Shown here: one piece after another, positions 14,406 to 44,282 of the stretch
Position numbering within the stretch: position 1 is the stretch's first letter
Layout: each line of letters begins with the position of its first letter
Assembly: GCA_964631675.1 (NCBI GenBank)
Contig: CAZVXJ010000001.1
Span: 1 to 52,703, forward strand
Source: an uncultured Alphaproteobacteria bacterium
GTDB taxonomy: Bacteria > Electryoneota > RPQS01
Reading direction: 5' to 3'
DNA: 52,703 nt
Position numbers and translations under genes: made by a program
The notes under the pieces: model-generated
What the model saw: the letters and a program-made list of their open reading frames with translations, nothing else
Told to the model about the DNA's origin: nothing
The model's database searches: none

Positions 14406-15874
14406 TACCGAAAGGCATGAATCACTTCCTGACACCGGTAGTTCTTTGTGCGCTGATGATGGGAACGGCCACTTCACAGCCACGTATGATCGCGTACTTT
14501 CCTTCGTGGGCAGTGTATGCGAGGAACTATCATGTCACGGATATTCCGGCTGAACATGTGACGCATATCAATTATGCGTTTGCGAATATCGTGGATGGGC
14601 GAGTGGTACTAGGAGATTCCTATGCCGACATCGATCGCTTTTATCCCGGTGATTGCTGGAATGAGGGATGCCGGCGCGGCTCGTTTCATCAGCTCGAGAT
14701 CCTCCGGCAGGAGTATCCGCACGTGAGAACACTGATTTCGGTCGGCGGATGGACATGGTCGAATCATTTTTCGGATGTCGCTCTGACGGCGAATTCGCGG
14801 CAGCTTTTTGCGCAGTCGTGTGTGGATTTCATTTCGCAGTGGCGCTTTGACGGCGTGGATTTGGATTGGGAGTATCCGGTCTGCTGCGGAGAACCGGGAA
14901 ATGTGGAACGGCCGCAAGACAAGCAGAATTTCACGCTGCTGCTGTCGGCGATTAAAGTGAAATTGGACTCCATGGAGCAGGCGGATCAGCGCGAATATCT
15001 GCTGACGATTGCCACACATGCGGTTGATCTGGACACGCACTATGAGTTGCCGCAGATTGCGGACATTGTGGACTGGATCAATGTAATGACGTATGATTTT
15101 CACGGGCCCTGGAGTCCCGGCCAAGAGCTGACAAACTTCAACTCAGCGCTTCATGCGGCAAGTGATGATCCGACACCCGAGCCGGAACGCAGCGAATGGA
15201 CTTCGGCAGGTTCAATCAGTGCATACCTCGACCGCCGTGTTGCGCCCGAAAAACTTTGCCTGGGAATGGCGTTCTATGGACGCGGCTTTGCCGGTGCAAG
15301 CGGCGGCAACAATGGGCTTTTTCAGCCTTATACCGGCGTGAGCCAATCGGGCACATGGGAAAACGGATCCTATGACTATTGGGATCTCGCACAGAACTAT
15401 GTAAATCAAAACGGATACGCGAGATTTTTTCACGCTGACGCGCGCGTGCCATGGCTCTATCAAGCGGCGGCCCACGTTTTTATCAGCTATGATGACAGTC
15501 TTTCGATTGCGGAAAAAGGGTCATACATTCGCCAGATGAATCTGGGCGGCGCGATGTGCTGGGAACTCTCTGCCGACCGAAACGATGTATTGATTGCTTC
15601 TGCCGTGCGGGCGATGCGCTGCAACGGTGCAGAGGCCGCAGCCATTATTTTCCGCGATCAGCATTTGACGCTGCAGTTTTTTGCTCCGGTTGCCGGTCAA
15701 TATACCATTTGGTCCACGACGAACCGAAGCAACGACAGCGATCCCGACGGTGGAGCAGACACAGACTGGACAGCCGTCACAACGATTCAGGCGAATGCCG
15801 GAATGAATAACTATGTAGGTGACTCTCCGCTTGGGGTTTACAAAAACTACGTGGTGACGCGTGAATGTGAGTAA
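14402..15874 (+). CDS. Secreted GH18 chitinase with FN3-like C-terminal module
   Basis: Catalytic motif 'FDGVDLDWEYP' (DxxDxDxE) and 'SVGGWTWS'. Signal peptide present. The start overlaps the radical SAM stop (ATGA). Confidence 0.9.
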   Translation: MIPKGMNHFLTPVVLCALMMGTATSQPRMIAYFPSWAVYARNYHVTDIPAEHVTHINYAFANIVDGRVVLGDSYADIDRFYPGDCWNEGCRRGSFHQLEILRQEYPHVRTLISVGGWTWSNHFSDVALTANSRQLFAQSCVDFISQWRFDGVDLDWEYPVCCGEPGNVERPQDKQNFTLLLSAIKVKLDSMEQADQREYLLTIATHAVDLDTHYELPQIADIVDWINVMTYDFHGPWSPGQELTNFNSALHAASDDPTPEPERSEWTSAGSISAYLDRRVAPEKLCLGMAFYGRGFAGASGGNNGLFQPYTGVSQSGTWENGSYDYWDLAQNYVNQNGYARFFHADARVPWLYQAAAHVFISYDDSLSIAEKGSYIRQMNLGGAMCWELSADRNDVLIASAVRAMRCNGAEAAAIIFRDQHLTLQFFAPVAGQYTIWSTTNRSNDSDPDGGADTDWTAVTTIQANAGMNNYVGDSPLGVYKNYVVTRECE

Positions 15875-16019
15875 GCTGTAAATGGACTCACCGTGATGCC
15901 GTGCGGGTAATGCGCGCCACTAAGCGGTGGGTTGTTATTATCTCTGCGGGCTTGCCAACGTCGCACGCCGTACTTATCTTGTAGCGATGTACTTTTGAGA
16001 CAGTTCAAAGGAGGTCGTT

Positions 16020-42663: not shown

Positions 42664-42701
42664 GTCACGCAATATTCCTTGAAAGTAATTAACAGGAAGT
42701 G

Positions 42702-44282
42702 ATGAAAAAAATGAACTATCTGCTAATGGGTCTGCTGCTGCTGGTCAGCTCTGCGTCCGGGCAAAGCGGTGGTCCGCAAACGCAAAGCGCGGAAGAATCC
42801 CGCGACAGAAATCCGCTGGATCAGGGCAATGACAACTGTCCTGCCACGATAGTATCCTCTCTTCCCTATTCGGACTATGGCTCGACGGCGGGTAGAGTGA
42901 ATAACTTCAATTGCGGAGGAAATTCTGCGCCGGACGTCATCTACACTGTTACGCCGACGGTCACCGACGTCTACCGGGTAGCGCTCTGCGGCAGTGCTTA
43001 TGATACGCGGCTGGAAATGACCTGGCATGGCGCCTGTCCGGGAACAACCAGCATTTTCTGCAATGACGATGCCTGCGGTTTGCAGTCGGAGGTGTTCGTA
43101 CAACTCTATGAAGACAGTACCTACTGGGTGATTGTGGACGGCTACCTGAACAGCAGCCACGCAGGCATCTACCAACTGGCCATTGATCACCTGTGCGTTG
43201 GCTATCTGCCCCACGATGTAACGGAGTGCGCGGAATCCCCGGACACGCTGCTTGCGATAGATGATTGCGACGGAGGACCGTGCAACGTGGACTGGGGAGG
43301 TGTTGCTACCTATCAAACCATCCAGTGCGGGCAAACGGTGCGCGGACGGGCGTTCACGGGACTCAATCCCGCATTCGGCGATTCGCGGGATGTGGACTGG
43401 TACCGCTTTAACATGTCGGGCCCCGGCACGGTGATTTTTACGATGCAGGCGGGATTTGAAATGTCCATGCAATCAGGGATTTTCCCGCCGACGTGTGATT
43501 TCTATCCGAACTACACCTTTGGTCCGGCATGCACTCCGCTCACACTGGTGATGGATTGTCCGGCGGCGGGGGATTACTTTGTCTTTGCCGCATTCAACGG
43601 ATTCAGCGGCATGCGTGAGCCGCATGACTACTACCTCCGATTGGAATGTTTTCTCAGTTGCGCAGCGAATAGTACGATTAATGCGCCGGGCGGGAGTGTG
43701 GGATCAACCTGTGGAGCGCTGAACGACTGTACGTTCAGACCCAGCGAAGATCGAATCGTGCAAGTCAACATTCCCACGGCGGACAGCTGGCGGTTTTCGC
43801 TCTGCTTGGGTGGAACGGAGTGGGACAGCCATCTCCTCCTGTCATCGAGCTGTTGTGACTCGAATACCATCATTGCCGAAAGCGGCAGCGGTTGTCCATC
43901 CGGACAGCGGGCGGTGATTGACTGTGTTACGCTATCGGCTGGAATGTACTATGTGACCATTGAAGGCGGTACGATCGGAGCATGCGGTGATTACTTTCTG
44001 GAAGTCACGCGCTGCACTCCCGGGCCATGTCCACCCGTGGATAGTCTCGTGGTCAGACCGATCCCCGGTATGCCGAACACGGTGCAGCTATCGTGGGTGA
44101 ATCCGAGATCGGGCGTTGCGCGAGTTTACAAAACAGTGAACGCGACGGCGACTTTCCCGGACACGTTTGTTCCGATTTCTGTATTAAATGTTGGAGCAGG
44201 CCGCACAACCACAAACGCAATTTCTACCGCAGCCGATCCGTATGCGAGATTTGTGGTGACGCTGGATCTCTGCGCGCCGTAG
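42702..44282 (+). CDS. Secreted Cys-rich module / PPC-like repeat protein with FN3-like C-terminal module
   Basis: Signal peptide. One canonical module ('LPYSDYGST...APDVIYTV...ALCGSAYDTRLEM...CPG...FCNDDACGLQSEV') and PPC-like units with 'DVDWYRF'. Confidence 0.9.
   Translation: MKKMNYLLMGLLLLVSSASGQSGGPQTQSAEESRDRNPLDQGNDNCPATIVSSLPYSDYGSTAGRVNNFNCGGNSAPDVIYTVTPTVTDVYRVALCGSAYDTRLEMTWHGACPGTTSIFCNDDACGLQSEVFVQLYEDSTYWVIVDGYLNSSHAGIYQLAIDHLCVGYLPHDVTECAESPDTLLAIDDCDGGPCNVDWGGVATYQTIQCGQTVRGRAFTGLNPAFGDSRDVDWYRFNMSGPGTVIFTMQAGFEMSMQSGIFPPTCDFYPNYTFGPACTPLTLVMDCPAAGDYFVFAAFNGFSGMREPHDYYLRLECFLSCAANSTINAPGGSVGSTCGALNDCTFRPSEDRIVQVNIPTADSWRFSLCLGGTEWDSHLLLSSSCCDSNTIIAESGSGCPSGQRAVIDCVTLSAGMYYVTIEGGTIGACGDYFLEVTRCTPGPCPPVDSLVVRPIPGMPNTVQLSWVNPRSGVARVYKTVNATATFPDTFVPISVLNVGAGRTTTNAISTAADPYARFVVTLDLCAP

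Follow-up and report, generated by a model that had tools for sequence, protein, structure and literature searches.

A strand-short FN3-like module closing exported proteins of an Electryoneota genome, a putative C-terminal localisation or docking tag

The window analysed here is the whole stretch of 52,703 nt, contig C1 of a 3.6-Mb metagenome-assembled genome (MAG) that is 85% complete. Eight of its open reading frames (ORFs) have at or near the C-terminus a copy of a module that resembles a fibronectin type III (FN3) domain without its last strand. We refer to this strand-short terminal module as tFN3 and to the eight copies as A to H (Table 1). All eight were found within a few bases of where the original prediction, made from the letters of the window, had placed them. 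As it had also noted, seven of the eight proteins end shortly past the FYxVxA strand, by 1-11 residues; the exception is module F, which is followed by a 56-residue tail. This tail is common to two paralogues and its start, NYESVTAPP, resembles an FG loop and G strand. The hosts, described there as unrelated, proved to be partly related: the propellers B and D are paralogues, as are the S1 proteases F and G, and Cys-rich modules occur in both E and H. A signal peptide had been assigned to all eight, an assignment that fails for ORF E, which has none of its own. The ORF upstream of E (30525-31502, minus strand) carries a signal peptide and lies in the same frame, with one TGA between the two (28341-31502). 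This TGA may encode selenocysteine, be recoded in some way or mark a fresh pseudogene.

The C-terminal domains (CTDs) of type IX secretion systems (T9SS) served as the comparison class. None of the eight hosts matched a type A CTD in Pfam, in NCBIfam or with a hidden Markov model (HMM) built from the genome's own CTDs. There was likewise no TIGR04183, TIGR04131 or ChiA-type match and no CTD motif, and the predicted lack of a T9SS CTD held for type A in every host. Three of the four neighbours said to carry such a CTD do so clearly (Table 1). The fourth, a PD40 propeller protein (44406-45632), has a weak, divergent one that scores 21 bits in Pfam, below the cut-off, and 19.5 bits with the own-genome CTD HMM.

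Table 1. Positions of the eight modules, the type A CTDs used for comparison and the four-gene cluster discussed in the text. G000 is the window's own genome, other G-numbers are genomes of the phylum and C-numbers are contigs; rows without these refer to the window.
Feature	Positions	Strand	Remarks
Tail A, GH18 chitinase (ORF 14402-15874)	15635-15865	+	Cys-capped tFN3; 2 residues (CE) past strand F
Tail B, delta-60/DUF5122-type propeller (ORF 16020-18875)	18594-18839	+	divergent, CPPxDSLVI ... C; 11 residues past strand F
Tail C, alkaline phosphatase (ORF 21011-22582)	22337-22567	+	main family; 4 residues past strand F; iterated HMM 3.3e-9
Tail D, DUF5122 propeller (ORF 25881-27314)	27075-27302	+	main family; 3 residues past strand F; iterated HMM 1e-18
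Tail E, Cys-rich/PPC protein (ORF 28341-30476)	28374-28598	-	main family; 10 residues past strand F; iterated HMM 5.6e-17
Module F, trypsin-like S1 protease with PPC (ORF 35679-39023)	38625-38852	+	main family; iterated HMM 1.4e-17
Tail G, trypsin-like S1 protease with PPC (ORF 39085-42663)	42442-42657	+	main family; 1 residue past strand F; iterated HMM 1.7e-24
Tail H, Cys-rich protein (ORF 42699-44282)	44031-44267	+	divergent, Cys-capped; 4 residues (LCAP) past strand F
Type A CTD, ORF 8573-9640	9401-9628	+	TIGR04183 6.4e-10
Type A CTD, M6-like protease (ORF 45648-49202)	48963-49190	+	TIGR04183
Type A CTD, ORF 49462-52479	52240-52467	+	TIGR04183 1e-11; Pfam PF18962
Four-gene cluster	G000:C29:10825-17273	-	also G003:C2:41332-49363, G036:C1, G031:C38

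In pairwise BLASTP tails D-G match one another at 1e-8 to 1e-11; weaker matches were obtained for B, C and H and none for A. An independent iterated HMM recovered tails C-G at 3e-9 to 2e-24. Tail B, a seed member of the core HMM, reached 4e-5 with the iterated HMM and 2.3e-21 with the A2 profile, of which it is also a seed member. Protein H is 41% identical, its tail included, to a 559-aa paralogue on contig C115 whose tail matches the core HMM at 1e-8, and tail H scores 3e-20 with the A2 profile (seed member). Both B and H are weak against the main profile, and tail A gives at most 3 bits against every main-family profile. It belongs to a Cys-capped subfamily of about ten ORFs in the genome (subfamily HMM 1.5e-29), and its paralogous tails end three other ORFs. 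The subfamily has a Cys before strand A, an NDGNPDGG insertion and an invariant Cys 1-2 residues before the stop, with proteins ending in Y(R/K)NYVVT..C(P/E). Besides the window copy, its members lie on contigs C196, C89, C352, C169, C375, C38, C328 and C58.

When B and H were removed, hhalign aligned the Cys-capped subfamily with the main family at a probability of 92.7% (E 4e-7) in a single register with coinciding ends. Tails B and H, with their CPPxDSLVI ... C pattern, are intermediates between the two. On this profile match and these intermediates, the eight tails are judged homologous and fall into two subfamilies. With an HMM from seven of the tails, the genome yielded six-frame matches in about 90 ORFs. 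All but a few of these matches end at the stop codon, which excludes chance. A word-based homologue search with tail E returned the query itself only, and a pattern search of the genome contigs for relatives of protease G returned none.

The original prediction described the module as a truncated FN3 without its last strand and proposed that structures be predicted; the models agree with the description. AlphaFold2 gave tail G, from 56 aligned paralogues, a predicted local distance difference test (pLDDT) score of 91, with strands A, B, C, C', E and F and no G. Tail A (12 rows; pLDDT 83) has the same six strands. The Foldseek matches of tail G in the PDB are bacterial FN3 domains (E 3e-4 to 3e-3, about 30% identity), among them those of Pel3 (4u49), PelI (3b8y), 3mpc and CtXyl5A (5g56) and a GH85 C-terminal domain, and no T9SS CTD is among its 50 best matches listed. 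Tail A had no significant match, its best superpositions being with the same FN3 domains. The models show the FN3 topology, and the module consensus, L.W / Y.VYR / FY.VTA, has the FN3 core residues: Trp in strand B, Tyr in strand C and the tyrosine corner in strand F. When iterated on the genome the profile also takes in common FN3 domains in tandem arrays, which places the module within the FN3 superfamily. It falls short of the seven strands of a complete FN3. None of the eight hosts reaches the PF00041 gathering score, nor E <= 0.1, although proteins retrieved by the profile do match PF00041, and the last 75-90 residues of the hosts match nothing in Pfam or NCBIfam at E <= 0.1, fn3 included. 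Internal FN3 domains of the same genome and of other phyla retain a ..GES..S..V strand. As modelled, then, tFN3 is an FN3 domain that lacks strand G. We found no description of a strand-short terminal FN3 in the papers searched, Pfam or NCBIfam.

The standard FN3 topology places the beginning of strand A at the same pole as the end of strand F, so that the conserved Cys pair of the capped subfamily could form a disulfide. The invariant terminal Cys fits an oxidising compartment. The Cys cap suggests that the six-stranded form is a finished fold that awaits no donor strand.

A scan of the genome bore out the repeated terminal use of the module, which is massively expanded and overwhelmingly terminal both here and across the phylum. 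The iterated HMM found FN3-like domains in 122 ORFs, 80 of which end within 20 residues of the profile end, and the main module is on about 105 ORFs. Strand F is followed by 0-4 residues in 57 ORFs and by 5-9 in 11. The stop codons of the 80 terminal ORFs are TAG (29), TAA (29) and TGA (22), and the frame past the stop closes after a median of 19 codons. Such mixed stops and short open stretches mean that these are real gene ends, and a recoding artefact was rejected as their cause. TAG or TAA ends 58 of the 80 tFN3 hosts and 143 of 167 CTD hosts, and TGA is the commonest stop among ORFs of at least 400 aa (371/945). The final residue is Pro in 31 of the 80. A paralogous two-gene cassette, in which a protein of about 370 aa without known family stands beside a tFN3 protein of about 440-485 aa, occurs on contigs C113, C177, C211 and C7; three of these four tFN3 proteins have a Pro-rich tail motif such as (F/Y)R(M/L)PxLxP.

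In a crude signal-peptide test 67% of the tFN3 hosts scored positive, against 64% for CTD hosts and 31% for the remaining long ORFs. By this measure the hosts look Sec-exported at a rate similar to that of the known tag. Like the type A CTD, it is found at the extreme C-terminus of signal-peptide proteins in a T9SS-bearing genome. Lipoprotein anchoring was rejected, the lipobox being rare in tFN3 hosts and CTD hosts alike. The type A CTD is on 171 ORFs of the genome, and not one of the 80 terminal tFN3 ORFs matches the CTD HMM; six ORFs with an internal, complete FN3 end in a CTD.

The two kinds of tail occupy the same slot on related bodies. Paralogous bodies among the CTD hosts were found for 50 of 94 tFN3 host bodies, and seven of these align up to both junctions. 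One such pair is a 442-aa tFN3 protein and a 415-aa CTD protein with 42% identity over 326 residues. In the orthologues nearest to the window's alkaline phosphatase (55-58% identity; G011, G014, G004, G013 and G029), the body continues into an Ig-like domain of about 100 aa and a type A CTD, and the tFN3 profile does not match that Ig-like domain. Within the phylum this enzyme has three C-terminal states (window 21011-22582 and loci L183-L199): no extension, the Ig-like domain with type A CTD, or tFN3. Since the orthologues carry the Ig-like domain and CTD in the slot where the window copy has tFN3, the tail of the window's enzyme is a replacement and not a truncation.

For the wider distribution we used 79 species-level genomes from nine families of the phylum (f1-f9) and counted main-family matches at E <= 1e-10. 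They occur in every genome of f1 (23/23), f2 (6/6), f3 (1/1), f4 (4/4) and f9 (1/1), in part of f7 (1/2), f8 (6/9) and f6 (5/16), and in none of the 16 of f5. Genomes of the window's class have 30-100 copies each, and the module is terminal in low-copy genomes too. The Cys-capped subfamily is confined to f1 (23/23) and f2 (6/6), the window's order, and 17 of 23 copies in relatives are terminal. Among 30 loci from five other genomes of the phylum, 26 end within 6 residues of the stop, three have tails of 34-56 residues and one is internal. One protein of G030 has a complete FN3 with strand G directly before a truncated terminal one. Families with almost no tFN3 still keep one conserved protein type with such a tail: in f6 a protein of about 935 aa ends in FYRVxAVLR (L238-L242), and in f8 proteins of about 430 aa end in YFYRVVKTW (L224, L229, L230 and L233). 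First-look counts of type A CTD candidates range from 61 to 698 per phylum genome. PorU and PorV are present in all 79 genomes, adjoining in all PorU/PorV loci compared.

In the control genomes outside the phylum the profile finds complete domains. In a control MAG labelled Fibrobacteraceae its matches are complete FN3 domains, and the three for which downstream sequence is available are followed by a T9SS CTD. In the phylum of a MAG labelled Terrimicrobiaceae, which we take to be Verrucomicrobiota, 40 of 151 genomes gave matches; the best 30 loci are all complete FN3 with strand G, and none of those 30 is truncated or terminal. Against 1.84 billion representatives the tail profile retrieved 86,634 proteins, the best 150 of which are giant tandem-FN3 proteins matching Pfam fn3, so this search is uninformative on terminal placement. 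In a FastTree tree of 197 domains and 68 columns, the label terminal-truncated or internal-complete changes 8 times within the genome, against a mean of 34 and a minimum of 28 for shuffled labels. Terminal copies of other families are nearest to terminal copies of the window's genome in 17 of 24 cases, and the latter genome's internal copies are nearest to Verrucomicrobial FN3 in 32 of 41. These counts overstate independence because tandem repeats are close kin. We conclude that tFN3 is a distinct FN3 lineage without strand G that has moved onto many unrelated bodies.

The best reading of these data, to which we give a probability of about 0.45, is that tFN3 is a lineage-specific, putative C-terminal localisation or docking tag of Sec-exported proteins, used instead of the type A CTD. 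The sorting or anchoring tag of the original prediction is thus kept as a tentative proposal. For it speak the slot in common with the CTD, the export rate of the hosts, the expansion and the terminal position. About a quarter of the copies tolerate a tail or a following domain, which suggests a folded docking module and not a signal that needs a free C-terminus. The cargo would fold in the periplasm after Sec export, and in the capped variant strand A would be held at its start to the end of strand F by a disulfide. A partner in the cell envelope might then bind the folded sandwich of six strands, in which strand F has an edge without a G neighbour. This binding would send the enzyme to a fate unlike that of CTD cargo, namely retention or docking at the cell surface.

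Several observations weigh against a tag. The placement had been called strictly C-terminal; it is so for most copies, whereas about 35 of some 110 have long tails of 15-83 residues, Pro-rich and in some cases with a G-strand-like ESAPSKPSEV, and 6 of 23 capped copies in relatives are followed by a Cys-rich module of about 170 aa. The mutual exclusivity with the CTD, complete in the counts above, follows in part from the terminal position of both. Conserved residues of tFN3 are ordinary FN3 core positions and no binding surface stands out; the module may be a stable six-stranded variant without any partner. Nor did a machinery come to light. No machinery-like gene was seen in the window. An adjacent partner gene, in the manner of type B CTDs, was rejected, there being no recurrent neighbour of the roughly 105 genes or in low-copy genomes. 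A PorP/SprF shuttle was rejected as well: the family gave hardly any matches, was not detected in the window's own genome, is found mainly in f6 and does not track tFN3. The same applies to an extra PorV paralogue, PorV-like counts not tracking tFN3, and to secretins, of which every family has 1-4 with or without the module. In G031, the minimal genome, the PorV model finds one non-PorV paralogue, which has orthologues of 47-54% identity in families with few or no tFN3. A PorV-like barrel with a fused C-terminal OmpA-like peptidoglycan-binding domain lies at G000:C186:4878-6362.

One gene cluster is a weak lead. It consists, in order, of a PorU2-like gene, a PorV2-like gene (a PorV/PorQ-family barrel), a gene for a protein of about 300 aa without family and one for an SLBB-domain protein of about 165-200 aa. 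The PorU2-like protein is a C25 peptidase of about 1,700-1,860 aa that itself carries a weak type A CTD. The names are those of the NCBIfam models 'putative PorU2' and 'PorV2' (NF052324 and NF052325), against which the proteins score 150-168 (cut-off 450) and 70-83 (cut-off 325); a literature search found no paper describing the pair. Seven of the nine families have the cluster; f5 and f6 lack it. Orthologues of the PorV2-like gene are in f1 (22/23), f2 (5/6), f3, f4 (4/4), f9, f8 (9/9) and G039, with 0/16 in f6 and 0/16, apart from one weak match, in f5. Among genomes with at least five strong tFN3 copies, 34 of 36 have the PorV2-like gene, and one exception, G028, has a PorU2-like gene. G002, 97% complete and with 77 tFN3 matches, has neither. 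The pair is missing from five f6 genomes with a tFN3-tailed protein and present in G040 and G066, which have no terminal tFN3. The lead is weak because of these exceptions and because related genomes are not independent. PorP, PorV-like proteins, secretins, neighbours and this cluster thus gave no clean candidate for the co-varying machinery that the original prediction proposed to look for.

Three other explanations have to be weighed. tFN3 could be an accessory FN3 of the ordinary kind, serving as spacer, stabiliser or general binder of polymers or surfaces, that happened to lose strand G and came last by domain shuffling without any sorting role; proteins that swapped the CTD away may then be periplasmic or exported by another route. 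Its fold and best structural matches are those of FN3 domains of carbohydrate-active enzymes, its profile merges with generic FN3 in the representative library, with the tandem-FN3 giants on top, and complete internal FN3 domains are present in the window's genome itself. The imperfect terminal placement and the failure to find a machinery suit this explanation too. It does not readily account for a truncation point that is constant, to the residue, in about 100 paralogues and between families of the phylum, for the separation of the truncated copies from the genome's complete FN3 domains as a lineage of their own, or for the exchange with the CTD at the same junction. The hosts, moreover, are proteases, a phosphatase, a chitinase and propellers, a variety that makes a substrate-specific binding role unlikely. 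On balance we regard a purely accessory role as rather unlikely.

The module could instead form a third T9SS class of sorting domain, which the T9SS would recognise and a second set of sortase and shuttle, namely the products of the cluster on contig C29, would process or attach. Apt for this are its terminal Ig-like beta-sandwich, its size, which is that of a CTD, and its position in the slot of the type A CTD. Every genome of the phylum has PorU, PorV and many CTDs, and the cluster is conserved in G000, G003, G031 and G036 and present, by its PorV2-like gene, in nearly all tFN3-rich genomes. The module, however, lacks all CTD motifs and profile matches as well as the last strand that type A CTDs have. 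G002, the five f6 genomes, G040 and G066 break the association, and since the genomes are kin the pattern may amount to one or two events. G031 also has no tFN3-specific PorV paralogue besides the PorV2-like one. We hold a third class to be quite unlikely, and it is similarly doubtful that tFN3 labels proteins for some second outer-membrane route of sorting or attachment, as yet undescribed and possibly run by the PorU2/PorV2-like cluster. A recognition determinant for a type II secretion system (T2SS) or a type IV pilus-like secretin system, comparable to the Fn3 domains of Pel3 and PelI, seems very improbable. Those two domains are the top Foldseek matches, and their loops 3 and 5 carry determinants needed for secretion by the Out T2SS (PMC7949064). 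Four secretins are encoded in the window's genome, two within PilMNO-Q clusters. Cargo of a T2SS is folded before export and can by then contain disulfides. Secretin numbers are, however, equal in families with and without tFN3, no GspC-M type cluster was seen, and the Fn3 of Pel3 is N-terminal and has seven strands. To our knowledge, no T2SS uses a modular, transferable tag. The PilM-PilN-PilO-secretin clusters lie separately on contigs C49 and C210 and are followed in one case by a Wza-like polysaccharide export protein and in the other by an S8 subtilase.

Two classes of T9SS cargo are recognised, those with type A CTDs carried by PorV and those with type B CTDs carried by PorP/SprF-like proteins (PMC12618676, PMC10994853). 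Like the type A CTD (TIGR04183/PF18962), tFN3 forms an Ig-like beta-sandwich, some 70-80 residues long, at the end of varied Sec-exported proteins, reaches tens to hundreds of copies in a genome of the FCB group and joins related bodies at the same junction. It differs in having six strands and not seven, in lacking the PNPF, GxY and K-rich motifs and any sequence match, and in being less strictly terminal. From the type B CTD (TIGR04131/PF13585) it is set apart by the lack of a profile match and of a PorP/SprF-like neighbour. With the FN3 domains of bacterial secreted hydrolases (PF00041; 3mpc, 4u49, 3b8y and 5g56) it has in common the fold and the core pattern, L.W in strand B, GA..Y.VYR in C, T.Y.D in E and FY.V.A in F, whereas it lacks strand G, has a longer EF connection and is mostly terminal where FN3 is usually internal or tandem.

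Other parallels are more distant. The dockerin is also a small module that is mostly, not always, last on many secreted enzymes, and the likeness fits docking to a common partner; it is, however, a Ca-binding EF-hand pair of unrelated fold, and no cohesin-like scaffold was found here. The donor-strand Ig folds of chaperone-usher and type V pilins likewise miss their last strand and leave the F-strand edge unpaired, but the hosts of tFN3 are enzymes and not polymerising subunits, and the capped variant suggests a stable six-stranded form. No donor strand, chaperone or usher was found beside tFN3 genes, in a search for short donor strands that was not exhaustive. As in the NCBIfam PorU2/PorV2 pair, a sortase-like gene for a second C25 peptidase precedes a PorV/PorQ-family barrel gene in tFN3-expanded lineages; the phylum's genes stay far below the curated cut-offs, and there are exceptions to their association with tFN3.

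C-terminal sorting domains determine the set of proteins that a bacterium places on its surface or beyond it. In this genome about 100 exported hydrolases and binding proteins are closed by tFN3, about two-thirds of the number with the known tag. A tFN3 profile would be an immediate gain for annotation. If the module is an address tag, exoproteome predictions for the phylum miss about one-third of the cargo. If it serves a second pathway, about 3% of the proteome would be addressed by it, and a strand-short FN3 would be a new class of sorting signal beside the type A and type B CTDs. A six-stranded FN3 may also offer a compact, transferable handle for studies of protein sorting in unculturable bacteria.

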